DNA of 64,000 bases from Bacteroidales bacterium. GTDB lineage: Bacteria; Bacteroidota; Bacteroidia; Bacteroidales; VadinHA17. The position numbers and the translations under genes are program-made. The DNA lies in the NCBI GenBank assembly GCA_049975425.1, contig JBNGDI010000003.1:14162-78161 (forward strand). Direction: 5' to 3'. Positions 43,406 through 62,205 of the stretch are shown here, piece after piece. Position 1 is the stretch's first letter; every line of letters begins with the position of its first letter. The notes under the pieces are model-generated. The model was not told where the DNA came from. It saw only the letters and a list, made by a program, of their open reading frames with translations, and ran no database searches.

Positions 43406-43465
43406 AACGATGTTTCCGTTTATCCCCGGAAGAAAGCAAACACCATGCCGAATTTGTTGCGGGAT

Positions 43466-44971: not shown

Positions 44972-45222
44972 GGCCTGAGCTTTTCCCCCCTAAAGATAGA
45001 ACAAAGCCCAAAAGAACACAAACCAGCATCACATTTTATATTTGCCTTCCGGATTAATTAAAAAGGACCTGCCTCGGAGGGTTTTATAAGAAAAACAGGG
45101 CGGGGGAAAATGTGCCATGGCCTGTGCAGCGGTCCTGTCTGAGGTTTATTTTTCTGTAATTGATTGAATAACAAATAATATTACATCTTTTACTAAAGAC
45201 TTGCGAATTTGAGGAAGCATAC

Positions 45223-45258
45223 AACTACGTAGACAACTACGTAGTTGTCTACGTAGTT
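45223..45258. repeat. Perfect 36-bp palindrome containing three CTACGTAG boxes at 12-bp spacing (candidate operator / cruciform)
   Basis: AACTACGTAGACAACTACGTAGTTGTCTACGTAGTT equals its own reverse complement (checked base by base). The flanking bases c45222/a45259 do not extend it. It lies in the 483-bp divergent spacer between 44971 (-) and 45455 (+). Confidence 0.95.
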
Positions 45259-45454
45259 ATCAGCCACGTCAGTCCTGTTGGACAGCTGTAGCATTATTTT
45301 ACTTAATTTGTATTTGTAAAAATATTATTTTCTGGTTTACGGAAATCCACCTGTTTTTCATCTTTTCTATTGAAAAACACCCCTTCTTTTTCCGCGGATT
45401 ATCCCGCTTTCATTAATTTTATATCGCCGGAAACGGTAATTTATCCTTAAACCA

Positions 45455-46948: not shown

Positions 46949-47039
46949 GGCCGATAAGGTACCCGGAACCAAACCCGGCAGGTAGTGATACCCCGGCTGA
47001 AAGACCACGGAACCATTTTCCGGAAAAAACTTAGAACCC

Positions 47040-47999: not shown

Positions 48000-48005
48000 G
48001 CACTC

Positions 48006-48965
48006 ATGCCTGAACCCATTCCCGGATGGTACACACCAGAGGAGATCGGGTGGCTGCGTGCATGTCGCCTGTGCCCCAGAGAATGCGGAGCTGACCGTTT
48101 GGCCGGAGAGGAAGGGGTCTGTGGTACCGATGCCGGCATCCACATATCCTCCATCTGCATTCACCGGGGTGAGGAACCCGCCATCAGCGGGAAACACGGT
48201 ATCTGCAATATTTTCTTCACAGGATGCAACCTGCAGTGTGGTTTTTGTCAGAATTACCAGATCAGCAATCCCCGGGCATCGGCCGAACACCCGGCTCTTT
48301 CCATGGATGTGGTTATGGAATCCATACTCCGAATTCTCGACCGGGGTATCCACGGGGTTGGATTTGTTTCGCCCTCCCATGTGTATCCGCAGGTTGTAGC
48401 CATCCTTCGTGCCCTGGAAAAAACAGGTAAAAAACCCGTTACCGTTTGGAACACCAATGCATACGAACATCCGGGGAATATTACCCGCCTGGAAGGAAAG
48501 ATTTCTGTTTACCTGCCCGACCTGAAATATGTTACCCCGGAGCTGGCGGTAAAGTATTCCGGCGCACGTGATTATCCGGAAGTTGCCTGTGCTGTGGTGA
48601 AAGAGATGTACCGCCAGAAAGGATCCACCCTTCAAACCGACAAGGCGGGCCAGGCCGTATCGGGCCTGATCATCCGGCACCTGGTGCTTCCCGGCCACGC
48701 CGACGAAAGCATCCGGGTGCTCGAATACATTGCCACCCACCTCTCCGCCCGGGTGGCCATTTCCCTCATGTCGCAATATTACCCGCCGGGTTTCCCCACC
48801 GGCCGGCCCGCTCCCGGACGGACCCTCTACCGGGAAGAATATGCCCGGGTGGTGGATGCGTTCTATTCCATGGGTTTCGGAAAAGGATGGGTACAGGACC
48901 TGGAAAGCACCGGTTACTACCGGCCCGATTTCGACCGGGGCCATCCATTCGAAACCGGCTCCTGA
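48006..48965 (+). CDS. Radical SAM protein, PflX-like (pyruvate formate-lyase-activase-related, COG1313-type)
   Basis: 319 aa with LCPRECGADRLAGEEGVCG (N-terminal Cys cluster) and FFTGCNLQCGFCQNYQIS (CX3CX2C). It starts 6 nt after the antiporter stop. It was preferred over the fully overlapping antisense ORF 47952..48995. Confidence 0.75.
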   Translation: MPEPIPGWYTPEEIGWLRACRLCPRECGADRLAGEEGVCGTDAGIHISSICIHRGEEPAISGKHGICNIFFTGCNLQCGFCQNYQISNPRASAEHPALSMDVVMESILRILDRGIHGVGFVSPSHVYPQVVAILRALEKTGKKPVTVWNTNAYEHPGNITRLEGKISVYLPDLKYVTPELAVKYSGARDYPEVACAVVKEMYRQKGSTLQTDKAGQAVSGLIIRHLVLPGHADESIRVLEYIATHLSARVAISLMSQYYPPGFPTGRPAPGRTLYREEYARVVDAFYSMGFGKGWVQDLESTGYYRPDFDRGHPFETGS

Positions 48966-49000
48966 AAATTGTGTATTTTTACCCGGTAAAACCAAGGATC

Positions 49001-49993
49001 ATGAGCCGGGAAAATTTCTGGACATCACTTCCCCGACCTTTTCTGTTACTGGCTCCCATGGAAGATGTGACCGACACCGTTTTCCGTGAAGTGATCATGA
49101 ATATATCGGCCCCGGGAGCCCTGCATGTGGTTTTCTCGGAATTTACCTCCACCGACGGGCTATGCCATGAGAAGGGAAGGGAAAAAGTGGTCGAACGCCT
49201 GCTGGTCAATCCTTCGGAAAGAATGCTGTTGAAGCAGAAAGGCATCAGGCTGGTGGCCCAGATATGGGGAACCGACCCGGAAGCATTTTACCGTTCTTCC
49301 CGGATGATTACCCGTGACATGGAGTTTGACGGGCTGGATATCAACATGGGATGCCCGGTGCGGAAGGTAGTGAAGCAGGGAGCCTGTGCGGCCCTGATCA
49401 AACAGCCTGCCCTGGCACGGGAGATCATTCAGGCCACCCTGGAAGGAACCGATCTGCCGGTGAGTGTCAAAACACGCATCGGTTTCGACCGCATACAAAC
49501 CGAAGAGTGGATGGGAAACCTGCTGGAAACAGGCATATCCGCCCTGAGCGTGCATGGAAGGATACAGAAGGCGGACTCGGAAGGCCCTGTCCACTGGGAA
49601 GAAATTGCCCGGGCCGTTCGCATGAAGAATAAAATCAACCCCCGGGTGGTCATTATGGGTAACGGCGATGTGATGAGCCTGGAAGAGGCACGCGAACGGT
49701 CGGAAGAAACGGGAACAGACGGGATCATGATAGGCAGAGGGGTCTTTCACAACCCCTGGATATTCAACCCCGTACAGAAGGAACACACACCCGGTGAAAG
49801 AACCGGCCTGCTGTTGCAGCACACCCGGCTTTTCTGCGACACCTGGCAGGACAGGAAAAATTTCGATATCCTGAAACGCTTCTTCAAGATCTACGTCAAC
49901 GGGTTCCACGGCGCCGCCAGGTTAAGGGCCGGGCTTATGGAAGCCCGTTCGGCCGACGATGTGGAAAAGATTATTTCCGATATGTTCCGGTAA
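49001..49993 (+). CDS. tRNA-dihydrouridine synthase family protein
   Basis: ORF 48887..49993, with the start moved to ATG 49001 (MSRENFWTSLPRPFLLLAPMEDVTDTVFR). It has Dus signatures LAPMEDVTD, DINMGCP, VSVKTRIG and LSVHGR. Confidence 0.8.
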   Translation: MSRENFWTSLPRPFLLLAPMEDVTDTVFREVIMNISAPGALHVVFSEFTSTDGLCHEKGREKVVERLLVNPSERMLLKQKGIRLVAQIWGTDPEAFYRSSRMITRDMEFDGLDINMGCPVRKVVKQGACAALIKQPALAREIIQATLEGTDLPVSVKTRIGFDRIQTEEWMGNLLETGISALSVHGRIQKADSEGPVHWEEIARAVRMKNKINPRVVIMGNGDVMSLEEARERSEETGTDGIMIGRGVFHNPWIFNPVQKEHTPGERTGLLLQHTRLFCDTWQDRKNFDILKRFFKIYVNGFHGAARLRAGLMEARSADDVEKIISDMFR

Positions 49994-50001
49994 ATTATTT
50001 G

Positions 50002-50961
50002 TCAAAATCCCTGAGGGATAATGATACCCACAGCCAGAAGCAGGTCGGTGCCCAGGACGGTGATCACATTCGTTCCCAGTGCCGGCACCATTTTGTGCAT
50101 ATTATCCCCGTGCCGGATAGCGGTAATGCTCGACCGGATACCCAGGGGCATGGGGATGAGGGCCAGGTAGATCCAGGCAGAGGCCAACCCCACCAGAGGA
50201 AGAATAAGAATGGTGCCAAAGGTAAGGAACATACCGAAAGCATACAGATAGGCCGCCTTTTTCCTTCCCAGTACGATCACCAGGTGCCGCCGGCCGCCGG
50301 CACGGTCGGCCTCCATATCGGGAAATTCATTGATCAGCAGAAGCAATGCCGTAAGGATACCCGGAGGAATGGATACCAGGATCACCTTCAGGGGCAGAAT
50401 CCCCGAAAGAGGCATGCCGGGCACAGCGGTCATGGCAACGTAGGTGCCTATCACCACCAGCGATCCCAGGGCCAGACCTGCAAAAAGCTCCCCCAGCTGG
50501 ATCCTGGCCAGGCCTTCCGTATAGGAAATGATGGTCACCCCCCCGATCAGGGTAAGCACCATAATAAACCAGTGGGATATGAAGGTAAAATACACTCCGA
50601 CAGAAAAAGCCAGCAACAGGGTTGTAACGGCTACTGCCAGTACCTGCCGCGGTGTGGTCAGGCCCTGCTCCATCATACCGCTTCCCCCGCTGAAAGGCGT
50701 CCGTACCGTATGGGCATCGATCCTGGTTTTATGATCGGAATATTCGTTGAACAGGTTTACTGAAATGTGCGCCAAAACCACACCGGCCACCAGCATCAGG
50801 GCATGCCACAGGTTGAATTCTTTTTCTGCGGGTCCCGGAAACTGGTAGGCAAAAGCCAGGCCGATAGCTACCAGCAGCACAGCAAGAATAAGAAAAGGAC
50901 CACGTACCTGTGCCATCCAGGCAGCCAGATAAACGGATTTTTTGTTTTGTTTTTCCATCAT
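50002..50961 (-). CDS. UbiA-family aromatic/polyprenyl prenyltransferase (MenA-like)
   Basis: 319 aa and polytopic, with the first Asp-rich motif NLFNEYSDHKTRID (NxxxDxxxxxD). It is the last gene of the mevalonate block, 32 nt downstream of the kinase gene. The acceptor substrate is not deducible. Confidence 0.7.
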   Translation of the reverse strand: MMEKQNKKSVYLAAWMAQVRGPFLILAVLLVAIGLAFAYQFPGPAEKEFNLWHALMLVAGVVLAHISVNLFNEYSDHKTRIDAHTVRTPFSGGSGMMEQGLTTPRQVLAVAVTTLLLAFSVGVYFTFISHWFIMVLTLIGGVTIISYTEGLARIQLGELFAGLALGSLVVIGTYVAMTAVPGMPLSGILPLKVILVSIPPGILTALLLLINEFPDMEADRAGGRRHLVIVLGRKKAAYLYAFGMFLTFGTILILPLVGLASAWIYLALIPMPLGIRSSITAIRHGDNMHKMVPALGTNVITVLGTDLLLAVGIIIPQGF

Positions 50962-50993
50962 TACATTATTTACTCGTTAAGCAAAAATACGTT

Positions 50994-51968
50994 TTATTTC
51001 TTTACCCCATAAACGGGAACCGTATCCAGGCCCAGTTCCTGCATCCGGATCACCGCCTGGCTGTAATCCCGGGCATAACCCAGCAGGTAACCACCTCCTC
51101 CCGCACCCAGCAGTTTCAGGTAAAAATCTCCGGTATCCAGTCCGTTTTTCCAGTATTCGGAAAAAATCCCCGGTATCATGGGCCTGAAGTGTTCCTGCTG
51201 AAAAGCTGACAGTTTCTCCATTTCACGGCAGAAACCTTCGCTTATTCCATTCATTACGTGAGAAATACAGACATCATTCAGGAAAAGCAGTTCCTTCATG
51301 ATTTTCTGCTTATAGGTTTTATCCCTGCACCTTTCCATGAACAGATCCACCAGAGGGGCAGTTCTTCTGGGAATACCGGTATTCACCAGGAAGAATGCCC
51401 CTTTCGCATTTTTTCCCGGCTGAGGAAGAACCACCGGCATAACCGTTCCGTTATGTTCTGTAAGCAGAGGAACCCCGGTATACCCTATCAGAGGATCGAG
51501 CCCGCTGCTGGTACCGTGAAAGAAGGATTCCATTCCGGCAAACAGGGTCTTCAGTTTGCTGAGCTCCCCGGGCGTCATACGGTGGCCCGGAATTACGGGG
51601 TCGACAGCATACCTGCGGTACAGGGCTGTTACCAGGGCGCCGGAGCTTCCCAGACCATAGCCGGACGGTATGGTCGATTCAAAATACAGGCCGTTGCCCA
51701 GGTCTTTTTGCAGGCGGTGCAGATCGAGAACCGGAGGAAGAGAACCGGTAACTACTGATTGTTTCAGCCAGTTTATATAACCGGCCAGATCATGTTGCGA
51801 ACGCCGCGCAAAATTCAGATCGGTAACCTGTTCACCGGTTGGGAGGACAAGACGGCCGCTGAAATGGGAAAAAGGAATGGTCAGTCCCCTGGCTCCCAGC
51901 AGAACGGTATATTCTCCGAACAGCAAAATTTTGGCATGTATCGTATCTGAAATACTCGTCATCTTCAT
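50994..51968 (-). CDS. GHMP kinase, mevalonate-kinase-like
   Basis: 324 aa. The N-terminus reads AKILLFGEYTVLLGARGLTIPF. GHMP motif II reads PSGYGLGSSGALVTALY, and the C-terminal motif reads KLLGAGGGGYLLG. Its start overlaps the decarboxylase stop by 4 nt. Confidence 0.7.
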   Translation of the reverse strand: MKMTSISDTIHAKILLFGEYTVLLGARGLTIPFSHFSGRLVLPTGEQVTDLNFARRSQHDLAGYINWLKQSVVTGSLPPVLDLHRLQKDLGNGLYFESTIPSGYGLGSSGALVTALYRRYAVDPVIPGHRMTPGELSKLKTLFAGMESFFHGTSSGLDPLIGYTGVPLLTEHNGTVMPVVLPQPGKNAKGAFFLVNTGIPRRTAPLVDLFMERCRDKTYKQKIMKELLFLNDVCISHVMNGISEGFCREMEKLSAFQQEHFRPMIPGIFSEYWKNGLDTGDFYLKLLGAGGGGYLLGYARDYSQAVIRMQELGLDTVPVYGVKK

Positions 51969-53005
51969 GCTAATTTTTCCGGGCCCCTTCCGGTAACATC
52001 ATCGATCCACCGGCCTTCTTCACAGAAACCGGCCAGTTCGTCATGAATAAATGCCTTCACCCGGTCCCGTTCATGTTCCGGGTAAAGCAGGTGCACATTG
52101 GGTCCGGCATCGAGTGTAAAACACATATCCCAGCCATTTTGTTCCCTTTTCCGCCGGATTTTTTCCATGATCATCAGGGTACGCGGATGAAAAAGAAAAA
52201 AACCAGAACGGGAGCTCATCATCAGAGCATGAAGGGTCAGCGCTTCGGATTCGGTTATGGTACGGAACGATTTTCGGTGGTTCTTCTGTAAGGATTTCAG
52301 CAGGTTTCCCAGGTTTTCCCTTGCCTGCCCGATACGGGCATCCCGGAAAGGATGTGTGTTCATGGCCGAATGACCGGCCGAACTGGATATTTTTTTCCGA
52401 CCCGGATCCACGATCAAAACGGCATCGAACAGGGTCCGGTATCGCGGGTGCACCCGGTGGTTCAGCGGAACGGCATATTCATCGGAGCTTTCCTGCACTG
52501 CAGGATCGTAACCCCATTCCACCCACCCGGGATATACCGAGCGGCAGGCGCTTCCAGAGGCAAGACGGGCCAGCCGGCTTGCCCTGGGCAAAAACTCTTC
52601 CCCCGAATTTTCCGGCCGGAACTTCCTGTCCAGATCGGTCAAAGCCAGCGCCAGGGCGCTCATGCTGGAAGCCGAAGAAGCTATCCCGGCCGAATACGGA
52701 AAGGTATTCTCCGTGTCGATCCGGATATCCAGGCCGGGAAGGAAAGGTAGTTCCGCCTCCAGCCGCTTCAGATAATCCCGGATCCTCTGAGCGAATTCCG
52801 GCTTCTCTTCGCCTGCAAACCGGAAGGCAAAAGACGGTTTCTTCTGTGCCGGGCGGTAGTGCAGGTGAAGGCGGGTAACGGAATTCGACAGGGTCATGCT
52901 GATGGAAGGATTCATCGGCAACTGATTGCCGTATTTCCCCCAGTACTTGATCACCGCAATATTTGCAGGGCTTTCCCAGGATATATTTTTCCACGGTATG
53001 ATCAT
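51965..53005 (-). CDS. Diphosphomevalonate decarboxylase
   Basis: 346 aa with SPANIAVIKYWGKYG, FPYSAGIASSASSMSALALAL and TLDAGPNVHLLY, typical of MVD. Confidence 0.85.
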   Translation of the reverse strand: MIIPWKNISWESPANIAVIKYWGKYGNQLPMNPSISMTLSNSVTRLHLHYRPAQKKPSFAFRFAGEEKPEFAQRIRDYLKRLEAELPFLPGLDIRIDTENTFPYSAGIASSASSMSALALALTDLDRKFRPENSGEEFLPRASRLARLASGSACRSVYPGWVEWGYDPAVQESSDEYAVPLNHRVHPRYRTLFDAVLIVDPGRKKISSSAGHSAMNTHPFRDARIGQARENLGNLLKSLQKNHRKSFRTITESEALTLHALMMSSRSGFFLFHPRTLMIMEKIRRKREQNGWDMCFTLDAGPNVHLLYPEHERDRVKAFIHDELAGFCEEGRWIDDVTGRGPEKLA

Positions 53006-53017
53006 GCTGCATGATTT

Positions 53018-53950
53018 TCACGGCCGGGCCATTTCAGGCCTGAGGATCATCTCACGGAAGGGAATGATCGTTTCAAGTCCATGCTCATGGAGAAATTCCT
53101 GCAGTCGCCTGAACGGACCGTTCCAGGTTACCAGAATAAAATCGCCCCCCCAGGCCCCCAGCGACTTTACCCCACCCGGAAAATCGGCCAGCAGGGACTC
53201 CCTCACTGAAGGCACACCGCTCAAACCCGAAAGGATGGACTCGTGTTCGCCAATCAGCCGGTCGAACTCCTCAAGGTCACCGGCCGTATGTATCCTGTGG
53301 GTCAGATCACTGATCTTATTGACTGTTTCTTCCCGGGGAGGATGCTTCCTGAGGAATTCCCGCACGCTGTCCTCCGAATTCTGTTTTTTCCCCAGATAAA
53401 CAAAATAGATACTGTCTTTAAAAGGCGGACAGAAGGATGTGGGAACCACGCGGGGTTTCCCTCCGGCGACAGAGTACAGAAGAGGGGTATTGCTCCGGGC
53501 GCAGGCTATGTCGAAACCCGATCCTCTGGAAACTTTCCGGTGCAGTTCATAGGGATCGACCCCTGCCCACCAGGCAATATTCGAAAGCAGGGAAGAGCTT
53601 GTTCCCAGCCCCCAGAAACGGTTGAACTGAATCTCCGTCTGCACCAGATACCCCCCGTTCCCCGACAGGAAAGAAGGATTCAACTCCCGGGCGCCCAGCA
53701 GGTGATCTCTGAGCCTGGCAGCCACCTCCCCGTCGGTGGCAGATACCACCTCCAGGGTTCGGGTATGGAAGGTAGCCCGGAACCAGGGTTCCCCGTTCTC
53801 ATCCGATTCCCACTCCAGTTCTTCCTCCCCCGGAAAAGCATTCACCTCGAGCGACTGGCCGAAACGAACCGGCATAGCCAGGGCAGTGGCTCCGAACAGC
53901 ACCATGTATTCGGCGGTAAGCAGGATCTTTCCGTTGGAATAATATTTCAT
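53018..53950 (-). CDS. Divergent GHMP kinase (GYDIA-family-like); candidate phosphomevalonate kinase
   Basis: 310 aa with GKILLTAEYMVLFGATALAMPV, WGLGTSSSLLSNIAWW (degenerate motif II), SRGSGFDIACA (a GFDIA variant of the GYDIA motif) and SLGAWGGDFILV. Its start overlaps the HMGR stop by 4 nt. Confidence 0.65.
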   Translation of the reverse strand: MKYYSNGKILLTAEYMVLFGATALAMPVRFGQSLEVNAFPGEEELEWESDENGEPWFRATFHTRTLEVVSATDGEVAARLRDHLLGARELNPSFLSGNGGYLVQTEIQFNRFWGLGTSSSLLSNIAWWAGVDPYELHRKVSRGSGFDIACARSNTPLLYSVAGGKPRVVPTSFCPPFKDSIYFVYLGKKQNSEDSVREFLRKHPPREETVNKISDLTHRIHTAGDLEEFDRLIGEHESILSGLSGVPSVRESLLADFPGGVKSLGAWGGDFILVTWNGPFRRLQEFLHEHGLETIIPFREMILRPEMARP

Positions 53951-55284
53951 GAATGATGTTGTTTTCGCAAAGATAGCAGGAATGTTTCCACAGCACGGTA
54001 ACTTACCTTCCTTTCGCTGAAATAGGCCCGTGCCTTTTCTTTTTCGGTGGGGGTTGCTCCCAGCCTGTTCAGCATATTTGACAGGTGCATTTTCATATGA
54101 CCTGCCTGAATGCCCCGGGTGACCAGTGAACGGATGGCTCCGAAATTGTTTGCCAGGCCCACTGAGGCGGCGATCATCATCAGTTCTCCGGCGCGCGGGT
54201 TGCCCAGCATCTCCAGTGAGCGCTTTGCCAGGGGATGCAGGGAAGTAAGTCCCCCCACTGTACCCAGAGCCAGCGGCAGGGTGAGACTGTACCGGAACAT
54301 ATTATTGCCGAGGTCGATATCGGTGAGCCCCGAATAATTCCCGGAACGGGCGGCCCAGGCATGCCCGCATGCCTCAATCGCCCGGAAATCGTTGCCAGTA
54401 GCCAGGGCCACTGCGTCGATACCGTTAAAAATGCCTTTGTTGTGCGTGGCAGCCCGGTATGTATCCTTCCGGGAAATCATCACCGCCTGTTCGAACTTGC
54501 GGGCAAAATATTCAGCCGTCATTCTTCCCTCCTGCTCACCCAAATCCCCGATTCCGGTTTCCACCCGGCATTCCACCAGGCAATCGGGAGTATAGTTTGA
54601 CAGAATAGCCATGATCACATTCACTTTCTTTTCCTCCCCATGGAAATGACCCGAACCGCCTATGTATTCCACCAGGGCTGAGGCCATTTCTTCCATGCAT
54701 GTATTGATAAAATTGGCTCCCATGGAATCGGCCGTTTCAAATTCGGCCATCAGCTGGTAATAATTTTCCATTGAACGGGTCATGTCAAGCAGCCTGATTT
54801 CGCGGATCCCTCCTCCCCTTTTCACCATATTCCGTGTTACCGGGGACGTTTTTCTCACAAGTTTTTCCTTCAGTTCAGGGAAATGATCCTGCAGCTTACG
54901 GAAATCTCCTTTCCAGGTAAAATGAACCTGCCCCACCTTGGTGGTGCCAAGCACCCGGGCATGAAAGCCACCACGCCCGGACCAGAATCCAGCGCTTTTC
55001 GCTGCTGCCGCCACCACGGAGCTTTCCTCGGTCACCACCGGCACCATATACATTGTGCCGTTCACTATCACATTCGGCACCACCCCGTATGGCAGGGGAT
55101 ACTGGGCAAGGGTGTTTTCACTGAATCCTTCCAGCAATTCCCGGTACTTGGGATGCCGGAATGAGTTTAGCTCTTCCACAAATTTCTGTGGATCTTTGAA
55201 TAACCGGGCCACCTGACCGAGTTTTTCTTCCCGCGGGAGCGAAGAAAAACCTTTCACCGGCTTTCGGGGCATTTTTTTCTTCAT
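53947..55284 (-). CDS. mvaA: Class II (bacterial-type) HMG-CoA reductase
   Basis: ORF 53947..55335, with the start set to ATG 55284, which forms ATGA with the fni stop. PYGVVPNVIVNGTMYMVPVVTEESSVVAAAAKSAGFW resembles the class II ..EEPSVVAA.. region. The protein also has DAMGANFINT-like SMGANFINT and GTVGG. Confidence 0.8.
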   Translation of the reverse strand: MKKKMPRKPVKGFSSLPREEKLGQVARLFKDPQKFVEELNSFRHPKYRELLEGFSENTLAQYPLPYGVVPNVIVNGTMYMVPVVTEESSVVAAAAKSAGFWSGRGGFHARVLGTTKVGQVHFTWKGDFRKLQDHFPELKEKLVRKTSPVTRNMVKRGGGIREIRLLDMTRSMENYYQLMAEFETADSMGANFINTCMEEMASALVEYIGGSGHFHGEEKKVNVIMAILSNYTPDCLVECRVETGIGDLGEQEGRMTAEYFARKFEQAVMISRKDTYRAATHNKGIFNGIDAVALATGNDFRAIEACGHAWAARSGNYSGLTDIDLGNNMFRYSLTLPLALGTVGGLTSLHPLAKRSLEMLGNPRAGELMMIAASVGLANNFGAIRSLVTRGIQAGHMKMHLSNMLNRLGATPTEKEKARAYFSERKVSYRAVETFLLSLRKQHHS

Positions 55285-56276
55285 TTTTTTACTACCAGAA
55301 AATCGCGGGCCAGTTGCAGGCCACGGATCTGCCATTCCACATATTGTTTGAGCTCCTCATAACTTCCCCGGGCATGTTTCAGAAACTCACCGGCCTGCCC
55401 GTAAACAGCCGGCAGGCGGATGCTGCTGATCAGGGCATAACCGTCAAGGTAGCTTTTGATTCCGCCCGAAATGATTACCTGCCGGCAGGCCGGATTGGGG
55501 TCCTCATCGAGCAGCCGGTTCACCAGTTCTACCATCTCCACGGCATCATGCCCCACGGTGGCCAGGGGACCGTATAGTTCTTCCTCCCGCCCACCCGTAC
55601 GCATCAGTTCGAGCCTGGCAAAATTGGTCCCGCCGAAAGCTCCGAATTCAATCGCTTCCAGTGGCAGGCGGAACAAGTTCCTCATGCTTTCCGGACCCAT
55701 TCCCTGACCCACCTCTTTTACGATTACAGGACATCCCAGCATTTCCACAACACCTGCAATTACCTCGATGGGGGGGACCGTTAGCCGGTCGCCTTCGGGC
55801 TGCAGGCTTTCCTGCATGGGGTTTACATGGATGATCAGGCCGTCGGCCTGTAGCTTTTCCACCAGCTTTTTCACCCGGCTGAAATCTTTTTGAAGATAGA
55901 ATTTTTCCATTTGGGCAATACCCAGGTTGGCATACAGGGGAGATGCATCACCCATCACCCTGCGCACATCGAAATCGGGAAATGCTCGATCATCATCCAG
56001 CAATACCCGGCAGGAACCGAGACCCATTCCCATGCCAAACTCGCCGCAGGCCCTGGCCAGATTATGATTGATGGTATGTGCCATCCGGGTTCCCCCCGTC
56101 ATGCTCGATACCCAGATAGGTACCCGGAATGTCTTTCCCAGAAAAGTAAAGGGGGTCCAGGGTCCGGTGGAATGGGCTTTCAACAGAGGTTCATACCAGA
56201 AACGATCGTCGCGTTCCTGTTTTTCCACCCGGGAACGGAAGGCAAGTTCGATATGGTCTTTTTTCCTTTCTTCCAT
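55281..56276 (-). CDS. fni: Type 2 (FMN-dependent) isopentenyl-diphosphate delta-isomerase
   Basis: 331 aa with RKKDHIELA, IWVSSMTGG, PVIVKEVGQGM and IISGGI, typical of IDI-2. Confidence 0.85.
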   Translation of the reverse strand: MEERKKDHIELAFRSRVEKQERDDRFWYEPLLKAHSTGPWTPFTFLGKTFRVPIWVSSMTGGTRMAHTINHNLARACGEFGMGMGLGSCRVLLDDDRAFPDFDVRRVMGDASPLYANLGIAQMEKFYLQKDFSRVKKLVEKLQADGLIIHVNPMQESLQPEGDRLTVPPIEVIAGVVEMLGCPVIVKEVGQGMGPESMRNLFRLPLEAIEFGAFGGTNFARLELMRTGGREEELYGPLATVGHDAVEMVELVNRLLDEDPNPACRQVIISGGIKSYLDGYALISSIRLPAVYGQAGEFLKHARGSYEELKQYVEWQIRGLQLARDFLVVKK

Positions 56277-56288
56277 GTCAGAAATACT

Positions 56289-57434
56289 TTAGCATCCTAT
56301 TTTCCGGGAAATGACCAGTTGAAGGATCTCGCTGGTCCCTTCCCCGATCTCCAGCAACCGCTGGTCACGGTAAAACCGCTCGACGGCGTAATCCTTCATC
56401 AGGCCGTATCCCCCGTGTATCTGAACGGCTTCATCCACCACTTCCCCGGCAATACGGGAACAATACAGCTTCGACATGGCCGCCTCGCCGGTATAATCCA
56501 TACCCTGGTCTTTCATCCAGCAGGCCGTATACAGAGTGTTTCGTGCGTGTTCGATCTTTGTGGCCATATCGGCCAGTTTGAAAGCAATGGCCTGGAATTT
56601 CACAATAGGCTGCCCGAACTGCTTTCTTTCCCTGGCATACTGCAGGGCCATTTCATAGGCTCCACGTGCCAGACCCAGTCCCATAGCCGCAATGGACAAC
56701 CTGCCCCCGTCGAGGGTACTGAGCATAATCCGGGATCCCTGGCCTCTTTCTCCCAGGGTTTGTGAAACAGGTACCCGGCATTCCTCTAAAAACAGCTCGG
56801 CCGTATCCGACCCCCTCCACATCATTTTCCGGTGCATGGTAAGGCGCGTAAATCCGGGGGTGTTCTTCTCCACCAGGATGGTAGTAAATTCCTTTTTCCC
56901 GCCGTTTTCACCAGTCACTGCCTGCACGGTGGCCCCGGCCGAGATCTCCGCCGATCCGTTTGTGATAAATATTTTCGAACCGTTGATTACCCATTCCCCG
57001 TTTTCCAGGCGGGCGGTGGTACGGGTGCCCCGGCTGTCGGAACCGGCATTGGGTTCCGTGAGCCCGAAGGCCCACAAGTGTTCACCGGAGCAGAGCCCTG
57101 GCAGGTATTTCTTTTTTTGCTCTTCCGAACCATAGTTAAAAAGGGGGGCCACTCCCAGGGAATTATGTGCTGCCAGGGTGGCAGCCTGTGACCCGTCGAC
57201 ACGGGCAATTTCTTCCACGGCAATGATATAGGAAAGAGTGTCGAGCGAATGTCCCCCGTATTCGGGGGGAAGGGTCATTCCGAACAGACCGAGCTCTCCC
57301 ATTTTCCGTGTAAGTTCGGGAGAAAACCGTTCCTCTTCATCCAGCCGGGGTGCCAGGGGTTTGATCTCGCGTTCGGCAAAATCACGCACCGTTTTACGGA
57401 TTGTTTCATGGTCTTCTGTAAGCAAGGGATTCAT
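56289..57434 (-). CDS. Acyl-CoA dehydrogenase (short/branched-chain type; isovaleryl-CoA dehydrogenase role inferred from context)
   Basis: 381 aa with ACAD signatures FGLTEPNAGSD, WVINGSKIFITNG, FGQPIVKFQAI and the C-terminal IGEGTSEILQLVISR. It lies 84 nt downstream of the biotin carboxylase gene and 12 nt upstream of fni. Confidence 0.8.
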   Translation of the reverse strand: MNPLLTEDHETIRKTVRDFAEREIKPLAPRLDEEERFSPELTRKMGELGLFGMTLPPEYGGHSLDTLSYIIAVEEIARVDGSQAATLAAHNSLGVAPLFNYGSEEQKKKYLPGLCSGEHLWAFGLTEPNAGSDSRGTRTTARLENGEWVINGSKIFITNGSAEISAGATVQAVTGENGGKKEFTTILVEKNTPGFTRLTMHRKMMWRGSDTAELFLEECRVPVSQTLGERGQGSRIMLSTLDGGRLSIAAMGLGLARGAYEMALQYARERKQFGQPIVKFQAIAFKLADMATKIEHARNTLYTACWMKDQGMDYTGEAAMSKLYCSRIAGEVVDEAVQIHGGYGLMKDYAVERFYRDQRLLEIGEGTSEILQLVISRKIGC

Positions 57435-57518
57435 AGACTAAAATTATATGATGGCAGTAACAAATATCCGATCACTTTGTTGAAGAATAAACCTTCCTGT
57501 CTTCCACAATATACTTTT

Positions 57519-59519
57519 TCATCCTTCCGCAAACCGGATCAATACCCTGTTTCCTTCCACCTGGTCGCCTTCGCTCACAAGGATCTCCTCCACCACTGCA
57601 TCGCCGGGTGCCAGCAGGCTGTTTTCCATTTTCATGGCTTCCATAACAAGCAGGATATGCCCCTTTTTGACAGATTCTCCCTCCCTGACACCGATCCTGA
57701 CCACTTTCCCGTTCATGGGAGCACGCACGGTTTTACCGTTCATTTCAGGTTCTACCGTAAGTCGTTCCACTGGTTCTTCATGCAGGAAATCCAGCCGGCG
57801 GATCTCAAAATCAAAACCCTGAAACGTCACAAAAGCCCTTCTGCTGGTATCTTCCGATATCCAGACCCTGTGCACACACCCATCGACCTCAAGGCTTACC
57901 TGGTAATCATGAACGGATTCCAGCCGCACCGCATGATGCATTTCATCGAATGTCATATCATAACGATCCCCCCGCAGGTTCCGGATACCGACTTCCGCTT
58001 TCTTTCCGTCAATTTCCACCGGAATTTTTATTATGTGCCTCCAGTAGCCAATCCTTTCCCAGATACCGGAATCCGAACCGGCAGAAGGCATATTTTTTCT
58101 GAGGCTGTACATGATACAGGCAAAAACCGGGATATGGAGCAAACAGCCCTTTTTCTTCCGGCGGACCGTGTCGATGATTTCCTCCCGGTACATGTCAAGG
58201 AAACGTGTGGATATGTTGTTTTTCAGAAAGGCAGGATGTTTTATCAGGCCGGACAGAAATGACATGTTATTCCGCACATTATGTATCACATATTTTTCGA
58301 GGGCAATCTCCAGACCCGCAAGGGCCTGTTCCCTGTCTGATCCGTGAACGATCAGTTTGGCGATAAGGGGATCGTAGTAACTATTGATTTCTGTTTTTCC
58401 GTTCATTCCCGTATCAATACGGATCCCATCTCCGGAAGGCTCGTGGTAAAAAGTCATTTTCCCAGGTGAGGGCAGAAAACCCTTCTCAGGATCTTCGGCA
58501 TAGATCCGTACTTCCACGGCATGTCCGTTAATTCTGACATCCTCCTGCCTGAAGCTCAGTATATGACCTTCACTTACCCGTATCTGCTCCTTCACCAGAT
58601 CGACGCCGGTAATCATTTCCGTAACCGGATGCTCCACCTGGATCCGGGTGTTCATTTCCAGGAAATAGAAGTTCCGGCTCTCATCCACCAGAAATTCAAT
58701 GGTACCGGCATTATCATATCCGGCGGCAACCCCTAAACGGATGGCCGCCTCTGCCATTTTTTCCCGCAGGCCGGGAGTCATAAACTGAGAAGGAGCTTCT
58801 TCCAGTACCTTCTGGTACCTTCGCTGAATGGTACACTCCCTTTCATACAGGTGCACCACATGTCCATGCCGGTCGCCCATGATCTGGAACTCGATATGCC
58901 GGGGGTTTTCCATGTATTTTTCAATATACACAGCCGGATTGCCGAAATAATTCATGGCTTCGCGAGCCACAGCTTCCAGGGCATCCGGCAGCTCCGATTT
59001 TTTCCGTACGATCCGCATGCCTTTCCCTCCTCCACCTGCAACCGGTTTCACCAGCAGCGGCAAGCTCATTTTCCGGGCTTCCTTCAGCAACGATCCCTGA
59101 TCTTCACCGGCAAACCCTTCGATTACCGGCACACCCGAACGGGCAGCAAAGCCACGAGCCTTTACCTTGTCGCCCATCAGGGCTATCACTCGGCTATCCG
59201 GACCGATAAACCGGATGCCGGCTTCCTCACAGGCTAAAGCAAATTCCTGATTTTCAGAAAGAAAACCATAGCCGGGATGTATGGCGTCACACTCTGAACA
59301 ACGGGCAATGCGAATGATCTTCTCCGTATTCAGATACGTATCATTTAGTTCTTTATCGCCCAGAAAACACGATTCATCAGCCATCGTTACGTGGAGGGAA
59401 TGTCGGTCGGTTTCCGCGAAAACAGCTACGGTTCGAATACCCAATCCGGCAGCAGCACGAATGATCCTGACGGCAATCTCACCGCGGTTGGCTACCAGTA
59501 TTTTCCGAAAATGGTCCAT
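57519..59519 (-). CDS. Biotin carboxylase + BCCP subunit of an acyl-CoA carboxylase (methylcrotonyl-CoA carboxylase alpha-like)
   Basis: 666 aa with KILVANRGEIAVRIIRA, GGGGKGMRIV, EMNTRIQVEHPVTE and the C-terminal biotinyl motif LLVMEAMKMEN. Confidence 0.85.
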   Translation of the reverse strand: MDHFRKILVANRGEIAVRIIRAAAGLGIRTVAVFAETDRHSLHVTMADESCFLGDKELNDTYLNTEKIIRIARCSECDAIHPGYGFLSENQEFALACEEAGIRFIGPDSRVIALMGDKVKARGFAARSGVPVIEGFAGEDQGSLLKEARKMSLPLLVKPVAGGGGKGMRIVRKKSELPDALEAVAREAMNYFGNPAVYIEKYMENPRHIEFQIMGDRHGHVVHLYERECTIQRRYQKVLEEAPSQFMTPGLREKMAEAAIRLGVAAGYDNAGTIEFLVDESRNFYFLEMNTRIQVEHPVTEMITGVDLVKEQIRVSEGHILSFRQEDVRINGHAVEVRIYAEDPEKGFLPSPGKMTFYHEPSGDGIRIDTGMNGKTEINSYYDPLIAKLIVHGSDREQALAGLEIALEKYVIHNVRNNMSFLSGLIKHPAFLKNNISTRFLDMYREEIIDTVRRKKKGCLLHIPVFACIMYSLRKNMPSAGSDSGIWERIGYWRHIIKIPVEIDGKKAEVGIRNLRGDRYDMTFDEMHHAVRLESVHDYQVSLEVDGCVHRVWISEDTSRRAFVTFQGFDFEIRRLDFLHEEPVERLTVEPEMNGKTVRAPMNGKVVRIGVREGESVKKGHILLVMEAMKMENSLLAPGDAVVEEILVSEGDQVEGNRVLIRFAEG

Positions 59520-59528
59520 AGGTACAGA

Positions 59529-60326
59529 TTATTCCTGGTTTATCCAGGAAGGATCCCTTTTTTCAAGAAAAGCTCTCATCCCTTCCTGCCCTTCCGCCGA
59601 AATCCTGACCGATGCGATCATCCGGGCTGTTTCCGCCAGGGCATCCTTCAGCGACCACTGGTTCGTCACTCCGTTTATCAGGAGCTTGCAACGGGTCAGG
59701 GCCTGCGGACCAGCCGCAAGCAGCAGGGCAATCATCTCCTCAAGGTGTTCTTCCAGTTCCGCTTCAGGAAGAGAACGATTCACCAGCCGGTAATGTTCAG
59801 CTTCCTTTCCGGTGAATCTTCTTCCGGTAAGCATCAGTTCCCTGGCTGTATATTCGCCCGTACGCCGTATCACAAAGGGGGAGATCACGGCAGGGACCAG
59901 TCCCAGTTTCACCTCACTGAGAGAAAACACCGCTTCATCGCAGGCATAGGCCATGTCACAGGCTGCGACCAGACCGTTGGCTCCGCCGATGGAAGCCCCG
60001 TACACCACGGCAATCGAAGGTTTAGGGCAGGAATAAAGGGTATGGAAACATTCCGCTAACCGCAGGCTTTCGCGGTAATTCTGCTCCCACGAATATCCGG
60101 CCACGTTACGCATCCAGTTCACATCGGCGCCGGCACAGAATGCTTTTCCTTCACCCCGCAGCAGGATTACCCGCACCGCCGGGTCGGCAGTCAGGTCTCT
60201 GATGCCCTGCATGATTTCCGTTATCATGCCTTCATGGAAAGCATTCCTTACCTGCGGCCGGTTAAGCCACAGTGTTCCTGTACGGTTTCCCGTTTCCGTA
60301 AAGATAAATTGATAAGTCCCTTTCAT
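59529..60326 (-). CDS. Enoyl-CoA hydratase/crotonase (methylglutaconyl-CoA hydratase position)
   Basis: 265 aa with LNRPQVRNAF..VILLRGEGKAFCAGADV..ASIGGANGLVAACD, a crotonase fold. It sits between the two carboxylase subunits, as liuC does in liu clusters. Confidence 0.8.
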   Translation of the reverse strand: MKGTYQFIFTETGNRTGTLWLNRPQVRNAFHEGMITEIMQGIRDLTADPAVRVILLRGEGKAFCAGADVNWMRNVAGYSWEQNYRESLRLAECFHTLYSCPKPSIAVVYGASIGGANGLVAACDMAYACDEAVFSLSEVKLGLVPAVISPFVIRRTGEYTARELMLTGRRFTGKEAEHYRLVNRSLPEAELEEHLEEMIALLLAAGPQALTRCKLLINGVTNQWSLKDALAETARMIASVRISAEGQEGMRAFLEKRDPSWINQE

Positions 60327-60343
60327 CAGGCAACAGGTTGATA

Positions 60344-61960
60344 TTACATTCTGTAAACCCCTGTACGGGGCTCGTCGATCAGCCGGTTAAGCGACATGGA
60401 AATTCCCAGTGACAGAGCCACACGGGTATTCACCGGATCAAGGATACCGTCGTCCCATAGCCTGGAAGTGGAATAATAGGCCGAGCTCTCCGTTTGATAC
60501 TTCAACAGCAATTCGTTTTTCATCCGCTTTTCTTCCTCCTGTTCCATGGTCTTTCCTGCTGCCGCCAGCTGGTCTTTCTTCACAAGGGTCAGCACCCCGG
60601 CAGCCTGCCCGCCTCCCATTACCGATATGCGGGCATTGGGCCACATGAACAGTAACCTTGGATCAAAAGCCCGGCCGGCCATGGCATAATTCCCCGCCCC
60701 GAAAGAACCTCCGAAAATTACCGTGAATTTGGGTACGGAAACGGTGGCCACGGCATGCACCATCTTCGATCCGTCGCGGGCAATACCCTGGTGTTCATAT
60801 TGTTTTCCCACCATAAAGCCGGTAATATTCTGAAGAAATACAAGGGGTATTTTGCGGAAATTGCATAATTCAATGAAGTGGGCCCCTTTCAGGGCTGTTT
60901 CGGAAAACAGCACCCCGTTACTGGCGACAATACCCACCGGGAACCCCATAATCCGGGCAAAACCGGTAACCAGGGTAGTGGCGTACCTGGCCTTGAACTC
61001 ATGAAACCGGCTGCCATCCACCAGGCGCATGATGATCTCTTTCGCATCCACCGGCATGTGCAGATCAACGGGAGCAATCCCGTACAATTCCCCGGGGTCG
61101 TATGCCGGTTCTTCGGCAGGCTGCACATCCAGCACCTGCCGCCGGCTCACCGGCAGGGTTGAAAAAATATCACGGCATATACCGATGGCGTGTTTGTCGT
61201 TTTCGGCATAATGATCTGAAACTCCCGAAATGCGTGTATGTACATCGGCTCCCCCCAGCTCTTCGGCAGTCACTTCCTCGCCCGTTGCAGCTTTCACCAG
61301 CGGTGGTCCGCCGATAAAAATAGTTCCCTGCCTGCCCACAATAATGGTTTCATCGCTCATGGCCGGCACATAGGCCCCTCCCGCGGTACATGATCCCATC
61401 ACCACGGAAATCTGGGGAATACCCATGGCAGAAAGCCTGGCCTGATTGTAAAAGATCCGGCCGAAATCGAACCGGTCGGGGAACACCCTGGCCTGCTCCG
61501 GAAGAAAAACCCCTCCCGAATCGACCAGATAAACACAGGGAAGGTGGTTCTCCAGGGCAATTTCCTGTGCCCGCAAATGCTTTTTAATGGTTTCCGCCAC
61601 ATAGGTCCCCCCTTTCACCGTGGCATCGTTGGCCACCACCACCGCTTCCCGGCCATGAATCACACCAATGCCCGTAACCAGTCCGGCCGATGGAAACTGA
61701 TCGCGGTACTGCCCCAGGGCCGCCAGGGGGGAAAGTTCTAAAAAGGGAGTATTTGCATCAAGAAGAAGATCAATCCGTTCCCGGGCCAGGAACTTGCCCC
61801 GGGCATGATGTTTTTTCACCGCTTCGGGATGTCCGCCACGGGTATTCTTCTTCAGGACATCCCTGAATTCATCCAGGAGTTTCTGGTAATTCCGTTTTCT
61901 TTCCAGAAATTCTCCCGACCTGACGTCGATTGAAGACACCAATCTTTGCAAAGGAATCAA
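60344..61960 (-). CDS. Carboxyltransferase subunit of acyl-CoA carboxylase (methylcrotonyl-CoA carboxylase beta-like)
   Basis: 538 aa with an N-terminus ..[24 protein letters not shown] as in MCC-beta/PCC-beta proteins, plus [25 protein letters not shown] and [12 protein letters not shown]. No ATG start is available; the candidates are TTG 61960 and GTG 61939. Confidence 0.8.
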
Positions 61961-61982
61961 GTTTTATGTTTAATCAATATAC

Positions 61983-62013
61983 AAAAAAAAACCGTGATTT
62001 CTTATCACCGGTT
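61983..62013 (-). terminator. Intrinsic-terminator-like hairpin + U9 tract 23 nt upstream of the carboxyltransferase start (leader terminator or sRNA terminator)
   Basis: The minus strand reads AACCGGTGAT-AAGAA-ATCACGGTT followed by TTTTTTTTGT. This is a 9-bp stem with one bulged G, then a run of T. Confidence 0.5.
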
Positions 62014-62121
62014 TTCTAAACAGAGAAATATCGCGATTGGTTCACCCACTCCAGAGCCGATTTCCATGCTCTGGAACATATATGGCTGCCCGGGGAAAAG
62101 CTATCTTCTGCTCTTCCCCGC

Positions 62122-62155
62122 AAAAAAAAACAAATCGAAGGAAGTATACCCTTCG
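62122..62155 (-). terminator. Rho-independent terminator of the 62206..62799 gene
   Basis: The minus strand reads TCGAAGG-gtatactt-CCTTCGA followed by TTTGTTTTTTTTT, about 50 nt after the stop codon. Confidence 0.7.
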
Positions 62156-62205
62156 AACGGGAAAATTCCTGTATAGAGTCTGAAGAATTAAGGAAGGTGC
62201 TGCTC

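Follow-up and report, generated by a model that had tools for sequence, protein, structure and literature searches.

The window, i.e. the whole 64-kb stretch of DNA analysed here, belongs to the MAG of an uncultured Bacteroidales bacterium and contains a minus-strand block in which liu-type genes of leucine catabolism run directly into genes of the mevalonate pathway. This raises the question whether HMG-CoA derived from leucine feeds isoprenoid synthesis, or whether the two sets of genes are neighbors for another reason.

Organization of the gene block

The block (50002-61960) comprises ten co-directional genes, ordered from 61960 towards 50002 and all present as open reading frames at the following coordinates; the list also gives the region upstream of the block and the BC/ACAD spacer:

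61961..62160, minus strand: structured region upstream of the block (hairpins, fold z = -3.58), read as marking the start of the transcription unit
60344..61960, minus strand: 3-methylcrotonyl-CoA carboxylase (MCC) beta-like carboxyltransferase (CT), TTG start; Pfam Carboxyl_trans, 496 bits
59529..60326, minus strand: crotonase (ECH), methylglutaconyl-CoA hydratase-like (LiuC/AtuE type); ECH_1, 176 bits
57519..59519, minus strand: MCC alpha-like biotin carboxylase with BCCP (BC); Biotin_carb_N, CPSase_L_D2, Biotin_carb_C, Biotin_lipoyl
57435..57518, minus strand: BC/ACAD spacer, 84 nt; site of an HMG-CoA-lyase-family gene in the related lineage L002, by comparison with the latter
56289..57434, minus strand: acyl-CoA dehydrogenase (ACAD) of the lineage's liu cluster ('EIGEGTSE' type), probable isovaleryl-CoA dehydrogenase (IVD) analogue; four ACAD domains
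55281..56276, minus strand: type-2 isopentenyl-diphosphate isomerase (fni); TIGR02151, 198 bits, below the cut-off of 281
53947..55284, minus strand: class II HMG-CoA reductase (HMGR); Pfam HMG-CoA_red, 267 bits
53018..53950, minus strand: GYDIA-family GHMP kinase, probably phosphomevalonate kinase; NF040656, 328 bits, above the cut-off of 225
51965..53005, minus strand: diphosphomevalonate decarboxylase (MVD); MVD-like_N and MDD_C; TIGR01240, 158 bits, just below the cut-off of 171
50994..51968, minus strand: mevalonate-kinase-like GHMP kinase (MVK); GHMP_kinases_N; TIGR00549, 60 bits (weak), below the cut-off of 163
50002..50961, minus strand: UbiA-family prenyltransferase, MenA-like; Pfam UbiA, 96 bits

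The recomputed junctions agree with the tight packing and the 4-nt ATGA overlaps described in an earlier note on this DNA. Gaps in the liu-type part are 17 nt (CT/ECH), 9 nt (ECH/BC), 84 nt (BC/ACAD) and 12 nt (ACAD/fni). The corresponding values in the mevalonate part are -4 (fni/HMGR), -4 (HMGR/GYDIA kinase), 12 (GYDIA kinase/MVD), -4 (MVD/MVK) and 32 nt (MVK/UbiA), with ATGA at each of the three overlaps. The fni/HMGR overlap exists only if HMGR begins at 55284 (445 aa); the longest open reading frame begins at 55335. Position 55284 is also the start used for a 100% identical database protein from a Bacteroidales MAG (P0001). No terminator-like site was found at the BC/ACAD or ACAD/fni junction, and the ten genes are likely to be co-transcribed.

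Upstream of CT, a terminator-like hairpin (62156-62135) closes the preceding open reading frame. Two further hairpins are located in 61961..62160, the last with a U9 run approximately 30 nt before the CT start. Neither an Rfam match for this structured region nor its conservation in L002 was found.

Mevalonate genes

The gene identities given in the earlier note hold at the level of families, as judged by Pfam and NCBIfam profile matches. This includes the GYDIA-type kinase, which exceeds the NF040656 cut-off though the literal GYDIA string is absent. The kinase always follows HMGR in Bacteroidota loci and is, by analogy, probably the phosphomevalonate kinase, since F. johnsoniae reportedly has a divergent MVK/PMVK (Hayakawa et al. 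2017, cited in PMC6107057). Similarly, many Bacteroidota loci have fni immediately before HMGR, and MVK follows MVD in most. HMGR scores 440 bits with PDB 7n7s and 193 bits with the P. mevalonii enzyme. For the prenyltransferase, the top NCBIfam match is DHNA polyprenyltransferase (118 bits, below the cut-off of 277); a homologue with 61% identity follows ACAD in the relative L164.

Carboxylase, hydratase and acyl-CoA dehydrogenase

Judged by its sequence, the carboxylase is MCC-type, not GCC or PCC. In phmmer searches against PDB, CT scores 695 bits with M. tuberculosis AccD1, 673 with P. aeruginosa MCC-beta and 664 with human MCCB, compared to 438 with GCC-beta and approximately 270 with PCC-beta. 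BC, with the motif EAMKME at residues 626-631, matches P. aeruginosa MCC-alpha with 508 bits. CT and the hydratase are 62% and 43% identical, respectively, to their counterparts in a Massilia liu cluster of the order IVD-CT-ECH-BC-lyase.

The earlier note had considered geranyl-CoA or propionyl-CoA as substrate of the carboxylase, which the CT scores and the 62% identity to a liu-cluster CT make unlikely. More broadly, it is very improbable that the CT/ECH/BC/ACAD module has nothing to do with HMG-CoA and serves another substrate such as geranyl-CoA (atu-like), propionyl-CoA or crotonyl-CoA. The top NCBIfam match of the crotonase, gamma-carboxygeranoyl-CoA hydratase (PRK05674, 264 bits, below the cut-off of 426), would fit such a role, as would the lack of IVD orthology of ACAD, but the carboxylase comparisons contradict it and HMG-CoA-lyase-family genes habitually adjoin the module.

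ACAD had been regarded as the equivalent of liuA. Orthology to IVD is ruled out by the alignment, in which the catalytic Glu occupies the MCAD position: the window protein has LDGGR and EIGEGTSE, genuine IVD has LDFER and EIGAGTSE. Among solved structures, Bcd/SCAD come closest (391 bits); IVDs score 241-261 bits. The residue before the catalytic Glu is Gly, as in IVD, and Tyr in other ACADs; the human IVD structure paper is said to link this Gly to branched-chain specificity. In approximately 50 of 80 ACAD-anchored metagenome loci this type of ACAD is encoded directly downstream of CT-ECH-BC, which argues that it belongs to the liu pathway, as the dedicated dehydrogenase of the lineage's liu cluster, with isovaleryl-CoA as its probable substrate. 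The enzymes that the protein most resembles, those of Bcd, AcrC and CarC type, are reductive in anaerobes, and the window contains anaerobe-type redox genes. Isovaleryl-CoA oxidation by ACAD may therefore be thermodynamically awkward, a point against a leucine shunt.

HMG-CoA lyase and HMG-CoA synthase

As previously noted, the window encodes neither HMG-CoA lyase nor HMG-CoA synthase (HMGS): tblastn over all 64 kb detected no homologue of either. Both genes may lie elsewhere in the genome. HMGR had been proposed to sit where the lyase is expected; the lyase slot is instead the BC/ACAD gap, and HMGR is located two genes further on. In L002, a 300-aa HMGL-like gene lies between BC and ACAD, and its start overlaps the BC stop in an ATGA. 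The 84-nt spacer of the window aligns, over its 3' part, to the last codons of this lyase gene, its stop and the following spacer with a score of 24, which was reached by 6 of 1000 shuffled sequences (14.6 +/- 2.3). A 16-codon mini-ORF in the spacer was rejected as a gene, as it is frameshifted in the near-twin L129.

Of the 24 unfused liu clusters that could be evaluated, 17 include an HMGL-family lyase, compared with one of five lineages with the mevalonate fusion, L002 being the sole carrier (Fisher p = 0.054, for a small sample and uncorrected for kinship of the lineages). The local absence of the lyase is considered meaningful because L002, the nearest lyase-bearing relative, has it at the position of the 84-nt gap and because unfused relatives usually carry it.

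Conservation of the fusion

The order (fni)-HMGR-GYDIA-MVD-MVK is found in approximately 80 Bacteroidota loci, with liu-type genes upstream in only a handful of lineages. The fusion occurs in five lineages (the window with L129 and L083; L002; L047; L061; L074), and ACAD-fni-HMGR are also joined in two Ancylomarina isolates. In the ACAD tree these five lineages belong to two deep clades, and their flanking genes differ. Since the arrangement recurs in this way, it is more than chance, and the view that the two halves are merely adjacent becomes unlikely. In most Bacteroidota the liu and mevalonate modules lie apart, which counts against dedicated channelling.

Direction of flux

The reading that best fits gene content and order, favored somewhat above even, is a leucine shunt into mevalonate that would be hard-wired at the gene-order level. 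The block would be an operon-like fusion of two modules, each separate in most environmental Bacteroidota. The lineage's standard liu-type set (MCC-beta, methylglutaconyl-CoA hydratase, MCC-alpha and the dedicated non-IVD ACAD) would convert isovaleryl-CoA via 3-methylcrotonyl-CoA and 3-methylglutaconyl-CoA to HMG-CoA. As the cluster lacks HMG-CoA lyase, HMG-CoA derived from leucine or isovalerate would then be reduced to mevalonate by co-expressed HMGR. The remainder of the standard Bacteroidota mevalonate cluster (type-2 IDI, GYDIA kinase, MVD, MVK and a MenA-like prenyltransferase) would lead to IPP/DMAPP. We infer this direction of flux, and the use of liu-derived HMG-CoA by HMGR. If true, leucine carbon is channelled into isoprenoids. 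Against it counts that no etfAB, BCAA aminotransferase or keto-acid dehydrogenase was found near the block.

A catabolic liu module with its lyase elsewhere is a less likely but serious alternative. The mevalonate genes would then be supplied mainly by an archaeal-type thiolase/HMGS/DUF35 set encoded elsewhere, and the linkage would reflect shared HMG-CoA or a shared regulator. Archaeal-type HMGS occurs widely, and with high conservation, across Bacteroidales MAGs; some relatives have it within the liu module itself, and 8 of 10 Flavobacteriaceae genomes are reported to encode HMGS. The earlier proposal that leucine replaces acetyl-CoA as the source of isoprenoid carbon is thus unsupported; leucine is probably one source of HMG-CoA alongside an acetyl-CoA route. 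The lyase, moreover, is often stand-alone and far from liu genes in other Bacteroidota, a nearby copy is also missing in 7 of 24 unfused clusters, and L002 combines lyase and HMGR in one block. What speaks for the shunt instead is that the fusion is conserved in two deep clades whose flanks differ, that the genes overlap or nearly abut, and that the lyase is depleted in fused clusters. In addition, the protein database that holds the MAG's HMGR contains no orthologue of the L002 lyase closer than 54%.

It is improbable that the liu-type genes run in reverse. In that case HMG-CoA from acetyl-CoA would be a branch point, drawn off by HMGR towards isoprenoids and taken to isovaleryl-CoA by the hydratase, an MCC running backwards with ATP yield and a Bcd-like ACAD serving as reductase; the isovaleryl-CoA would supply iso-branched lipids or leucine. 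A precedent exists in M. xanthus, where a shunt from HMG-CoA to isovaleryl-CoA is clustered with mvaS (PMC5389471). In L164/L160 and L168/L169, the order CT-ECH-BC-HMGS-thiolase-DUF35-ACAD forms one linear path from acetyl-CoA to isovaleryl-CoA without a lyase, and the nearest characterized relatives of ACAD are reductive enzymes of anaerobes. However, the ATP-grasp BC domain of the carboxylase is complete, and we know of no biotin carboxylase that runs backwards physiologically. Myxococcus uses AibA/B instead of a reversed carboxylase, no AibA/B-family gene was found in the window, and the CoA-transferases adjoining HMGS in L170 are ordinary SCOT. ACAD orthologues also adjoin HMG-CoA lyase in most unfused clusters, i.e. 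they point in the catabolic direction.

Comparison with known systems

The CT-ECH-BC order is common to the window and proteobacterial liu clusters (Massilia putida plasmid NZ_CP019037, IVD-CT-ECH-BC-HMG-CoA lyase; Pseudomonas liuABCDE). The MCC-type CT and LiuC-like hydratase resemble those of Massilia, and L002 has the lyase directly after BC. In contrast, the ACAD of the window belongs to another subfamily, with its catalytic Glu at the MCAD position, and follows the carboxylase instead of preceding it; the cluster lacks a lyase and runs on into mevalonate genes. These match the classical Bacteroidota mevalonate cluster, (fni)-HMGR-GYDIA-MVD-MVK with HMGS outside, of the F. johnsoniae type with its divergent MVK/PMVK (Hayakawa et al. 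2017, cited in PMC6107057).

The trio of the archaeal thiolase/HMGS/DUF35 complex (PDB 6esq family) is carried by the relatives L160/L164, L168/L169, L170 and L172, whose HMGS passes archaeal equivalog models. It is absent from the window and, in some relatives, interleaved with MCC genes. The AIB pathway of Myxococcus xanthus (aibR-aibA-aibB-aibC-mvaS plus liuC; PMC5389471) likewise has HMG-CoA as the node between isoprenoid and isovaleryl-CoA metabolism, and in L164 and L168 HMGS is clustered with isovaleryl-CoA-pathway genes. The window, in contrast, lacks the AibA/B decarboxylase and AibC, and its full biotin carboxylase argues for the opposite direction. Among the systems compared, we know of no description of the trio interleaved with MCC genes.

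The same chemistry as proposed here, from leucine via isovaleryl-CoA and HMG-CoA to mevalonate, bypassing acetyl-CoA, is known from Halobacterium salinarum and Leishmania mexicana (PMC8791446, section 3.1.2) and has been proposed for Calditenuis (PMC12979851). The chemistry itself is not new, while a bacterial operon for it seems not to have been described before. In those organisms the shunt was recognized by labelling or by metabolic reconstruction with dispersed genes, whereas here it is proposed from gene order only, in a bacterium.

Organization of the gene block

The block consists of ten minus-strand open reading frames, which lie at the coordinates assigned to them in the earlier note, and recomputing the junctions recovered all three ATGA start/stop overlaps that had been claimed there. 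From the first to the last gene the junction gaps are 17, 9, 84, 12, -4, -4, 12, -4 and 32 nt. Pfam and NCBIfam models identify, in this order, a carboxyltransferase (CT), a crotonase (ECH), a biotin carboxylase with BCCP domain (BC), an acyl-CoA dehydrogenase (ACAD), a type-2 IDI (fni), a class II HMG-CoA reductase (HMGR), a GYDIA-family kinase, MVD, an MVK-like kinase and a UbiA prenyltransferase. At the fni/HMGR overlap, HMGR starts with the ATG at 55284, the same start as in the database protein P0001 (445 aa; 'MAG: hypothetical protein ACP5D1_02020 [Bacteroidales bacterium]'), to which the window HMGR is 100% identical. The block and its surroundings comprise the following features:

62156-62135, terminator-like hairpin that ends the gene upstream of the block
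61961-62160, minus strand, three hairpins between the upstream open reading frame and CT; a U9 run comes after the third one, about 30 nt ahead of the CT start codon
50002-61960, minus strand, the ten-gene block
53018-53950, minus strand, kinase of the block scoring above the cut-off of the NCBIfam 'GYDIA family GHMP kinase' model, although no literal GYDIA motif occurs in its sequence
40024-49993, downstream genes in conserved order
10231-15754, minus strand, and 3737-7570, plus strand, redox genes of anaerobe type

A terminator-like site was not found at the BC/ACAD and ACAD/fni junctions, the overall number of such sites in the scan being that of chance. Matches in a sigma-70 scan and in a search for the Bacteroidota element TAnnTTTG were at or below chance level, so that these scans are uninformative on internal promoters. 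An Rfam search for a riboswitch or leader family gave no match. The hairpin region ahead of CT has a fold z-score of -3.58 and likewise matches no Rfam family, and it lacks conservation in L002, the locus of a relative; the three hairpins may act as terminators stacked in a row or as a leader/attenuator.

Downstream synteny is common to the window, L001:5934-11749 (a further relative) and L002:15304-21335. The conserved order is Dus, a radical SAM gene, (a Na/Ca exchanger), an M28 peptidase, a Memo/AMMECR1 fusion and a 717-aa spermine-synthase-like protein, and in the window another radical-SAM gene follows. The redox genes encode a 1232-aa protein with 2Fe-2S, pyridine-nucleotide-disulphide oxidoreductase, 4Fe-4S and molybdopterin domains, with a NuoF-like subunit next to it; at a separate site, a DmsC-type anchor accompanies a molybdopterin oxidoreductase. 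Such genes suggest that the organism lives anaerobically, which bears on the possible direction of the ACAD reaction.

Assignment of the encoded enzymes

The carboxyltransferase is of the MCC-beta clade, reaching 695 bits against M. tuberculosis AccD1, 673 against P. aeruginosa MCC-beta and 664 against human MCCB, compared to 438 bits for the geranyl-CoA carboxylase beta subunit and about 270 for PCC-beta. On these scores, the reading as a geranyl- or propionyl-CoA carboxylase was rejected. The MCC-alpha-like subunit, a biotin carboxylase fused to BCCP with the biotinylation site EAMKME, scores alike for MCC and PCC and alone is no discriminator between them. The crotonase fold of the putative 3-methylglutaconyl-CoA hydratase (LiuC) is certain; its best match is to PRK05674, at 264 bits and short of the 426-bit cut-off. 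That the carboxylase module works on a substrate other than 3-methylcrotonyl-CoA is considered extremely improbable.

An annotated canonical leucine/isovalerate utilisation (liu) cluster on the Massilia putida plasmid NZ_CP019037 was used as reference. It has the order IVD-CT-ECH-BC-HMG-CoA lyase-ETF-QO, IVD being isovaleryl-CoA dehydrogenase, and its proteins are 62% (CT), 43% (ECH), 40% (BC) and 38.5% (ACAD versus IVD) identical to those of the window.

In the IVD subfamily, the catalytic Glu is located on helix G, and the conserved motif reads EIGAGTSE. The Massilia IVD carries LDFER and EIGAGTSE, whereas the window ACAD and all its syntenic orthologues carry LDGGR and EIGEGTSE, the latter motif placing the catalytic Glu at the MCAD/SCAD position. 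The residue before this Glu is Gly, as in IVD, versus Tyr in other ACADs. An orthologue of IVD is excluded by these motifs and by bit scores of 391 for Bcd/SCAD versus 241-261 for IVD; the nearest solved structures are butyryl-CoA/short-chain dehydrogenases. In a metagenome scan anchored on this ACAD type, about 50 of 80 loci had it directly 3' of CT-ECH-BC, and it is the dedicated dehydrogenase of the liu-type cluster in this lineage. The synteny suggests that IVD was exchanged for a non-orthologous ACAD, which is most simply a non-orthologous isovaleryl-CoA dehydrogenase, isovaleryl-CoA being its presumptive substrate.

The mevalonate (MVA) half encodes class II HMGR, MVK, PMVK, MVD and IDI together. 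HMGR and MVD are clear matches; those of MVK and IDI-2 fall under the curated cut-offs, yet both genes are syntenic in about 80 loci. We infer which of the two kinases is MVK and which is PMVK.

Recurrence of the liu-MVA linkage

An HMGR-anchored scan of species-representative genomes yielded 80 loci, about 50 of them with 7 kb or more of sequence ahead of HMGR. Nearly all 80 loci comprise just (fni)-HMGR-GYDIA-MVD-MVK. The full fusion without a lyase gene was found in three of the roughly 50 loci with sufficient upstream sequence (L047, L061 and L074), and ACAD-fni-HMGR was found in two Ancylomarina isolates. Adding L002 and the window group (the window, L129 and L083) gives five fused lineages. 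The flanks of the fused blocks vary and include a sialate esterase, a 6-phosphogluconate dehydrogenase and DUF362/DUF6599 genes.

In neighbor-joining trees rooted with the Massilia proteins and built without bootstrap support values, the fused lineages form two deep groups, both below the crown of unfused clusters. Clade I comprises Ancylomarina, L047, L061 and L074, and Clade II L168, L164, L002 and window/L129/L083. The linkage of the two halves has thus persisted while these lineages diverged widely, which speaks against adjacency by chance.

Both Ancylomarina loci, L019:7694-14376 (Ancylomarina sp. 16SWW S1-10-2) and L025 (A. euxinus M1P), stem from cultured strains. Here, the liu-type ACAD alone stands ahead of fni-HMGR-GYDIA-MVD-MVK and is preceded by a MutS-like gene, and a carboxylase was not found within 7 kb. 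At L047:2949-5159, carboxyltransferase and crotonase share one 736-aa open reading frame, which is due to a true gene fusion or to a frameshift in the assembly.

The HMG-CoA lyase gene and the 84-nt spacer

A homologue of the HMG-CoA-lyase (HMGL) family was not found within the 64-kb window. The nearest comparable relative is L002 (assembly GCA_975958035.1; HMGR 63%, CT 83% and ACAD 82% identical), with the order CT-ECH-BC-HMGL-ACAD-fni-HMGR-GYDIA-MVD-MVK-UbiA. Its HMGL gene (300 aa) begins in an ATGA overlap with the BC stop codon, at the site of the 84-nt spacer of the window. The encoded protein belongs to a family annotated as HMG-CoA lyase across Bacteroidota, and the sole NCBIfam model matched is HMG-CoA lyase, with a score under the cut-off.

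In the 3' part of the spacer, the window sequence can be aligned to the final codons, the stop and the downstream spacer of the L002 lyase gene with a score exceeding 994 of 1000 shuffles; for the 5' part, no alignment with this gene above shuffles was obtained. The near-twin L129 (93.4% nucleotide identity) has the same gap without a lyase gene, and a 16-codon mini-ORF of the window spacer carries a frameshift in L129. Because of the unaligned 5' part and this frameshift, it is plausible, not proven, that the window lineage lost the lyase, and the spacer is no more than suggestive of an in-frame lyase deletion. The gene trees equally allow a lyase insertion in L002.

Across loci, an HMGL-family gene is present in 17 of 24 evaluable unfused clusters versus one of five MVA-fused lineages (Fisher p = 0.054), and in one of seven when clusters linked to HMG-CoA synthase (HMGS) are added to the latter (p = 0.012); these counts are small and the Fisher tests ignore phylogeny. 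In many unfused liu clusters, two differing HMGL-family paralogues adjoin each other. They are found between BC and ACAD in L149, L150, L151, L152, L155 and L165, and paired paralogues also occur in L095, L102, L112 and L126. Both match the HMG-CoA-lyase model alone, each below the cut-off.

HMG-CoA synthase and the acetyl-CoA route

Neither the window nor any of the HMGR-anchored loci encodes acetoacetyl-CoA thiolase or HMGS, an absence that is local only. The query, S. aureus MvaS (identical to PDB 1xpk), picks up HMGS down to 32% identity elsewhere. On plasmids, no Bacteroidota HMGS was found. An archaeal-type HMGS query from the related locus L164 retrieved more than 120 clusters at 77-98% identity, none assignable to the MAG of the window; this family is highly conserved and widespread among Bacteroidales MAGs. 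Most Flavobacteriaceae have HMGS (PMC4026382, Table S6). The genome of the window may well carry HMGS at another site, and the claim of the earlier note that isoprenoid carbon is drawn from leucine "rather than from acetyl-CoA" is therefore unsupported.

L160 and L164 are a sister lineage of the window clade. Here, three genes split the liu module between BC and ACAD; they encode an archaeal-type HMGS (passing NF003274 and TIGR00748), the thiolase that matches it and a DUF35 protein. In L164 (2424-12199), ACAD is followed by a UbiA gene whose product is 61% identical to that of the window. The same order, CT-ECH-BC-HMGS-thiolase-DUF35-ACAD, is found in L168 (2719-13863) and L169, and a lyase was not found in the L164 or L168 locus. 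The trio also occurs amid related genes in L170 and L172. Liu-type genes in this lineage are thus repeatedly tied to HMG-CoA-anabolic genes. Clusters of the L164/L168 type would provide either two routes to HMG-CoA or one linear route from acetyl-CoA to isovaleryl-CoA.

In L170 (10001-14299) and L171, both subunits of succinyl-CoA:3-ketoacid CoA-transferase (SCOT) are encoded directly after the trio, which suggests that acetoacetate is activated and then passed to HMGS or thiolase. An identity of the L170 CoA-transferases as AibA/B was rejected, the genes being SCOT.

Fate of HMG-CoA

The gene complement of the block is consistent with intact leucine carbon entering isoprenoids via HMG-CoA. 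We lean towards the reading that HMG-CoA from the liu module would be reduced to mevalonate by the presumably co-expressed HMGR. The main alternative, which we regard as less likely, is a neighborhood of genes sharing an intermediate, with lyase and HMGS encoded elsewhere.

The pathway might also run in reverse, analogous to the myxobacterial AIB pathway (PMC5389471). The L164/L168 genes can be joined to one linear path from acetyl-CoA to isovaleryl-CoA and the ACAD is similar to the reductive Bcd/AcrC enzymes, but a complete ATP-grasp carboxylase is present, an AibA/B homologue was not found, and the same ACAD orthologues usually adjoin a lyase gene, so that a reverse direction appears unlikely. 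About as improbable is an 'HMG-CoA hub' operon of anaerobic Bacteroidales with a liu-type module running backwards. The hydratase would dehydrate HMG-CoA, the biotin carboxylase would decarboxylate the product, yielding ATP, and the Bcd-like ACAD would reduce 3-methylcrotonyl-CoA. If true, one operon would supply isoprenoid units as well as isovaleryl-CoA to prime iso-branched lipids, both from acetyl-CoA, as a second, non-homologous counterpart of myxobacterial AIB and a physiological reversal of MCC.

Were the favored leucine-to-mevalonate reading true, a group of widespread environmental Bacteroidales would derive part of the carbon in quinones and carrier lipids from amino acids, and leucine/isovalerate carbon would skip the thermodynamically unfavourable thiolase/HMGS steps. 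This would change the reading of compound-specific isotope data on isoprenoid versus acyl lipids in anoxic sediments and digesters, affect the scoring of the 'upper mevalonate pathway' in metabolic reconstructions of MAGs and offer compact natural gene sets for engineering a leucine shunt, which according to a 2021 review had not yet been built in E. coli (PMC8791446). A clean evolutionary hypothesis follows, in which the liu module is combined with a lyase (catabolic), with HMGR/MVA genes or with thiolase/HMGS/DUF35.

Comparison with known systems

Myxobacterial AIB employs AibA/AibB, a decarboxylase of the CoA-transferase family, the reductase AibC and MvaS; in contrast, neither CoA_trans-family nor HMGS homologues were found within the window. 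A description of a Bacteroidota liu-MVA operon, of lyase depletion or of MCC-HMGS interleaving was not found in the open-access literature, which, being the only literature searched, provides weak evidence of novelty. Labelling experiments have documented the leucine shunt in H. salinarum and L. mexicana (PMC8791446), and it was proposed for Calditenuis (PMC12979851). Its chemistry is already known, and each module is ordinary in isolation. Apparently new are the recurrent operon-level fusion of liu and MVA genes in Bacteroidales with the accompanying lyase depletion, and, in relatives, the placement of an archaeal-type thiolase/HMGS/DUF35 set among MCC genes.
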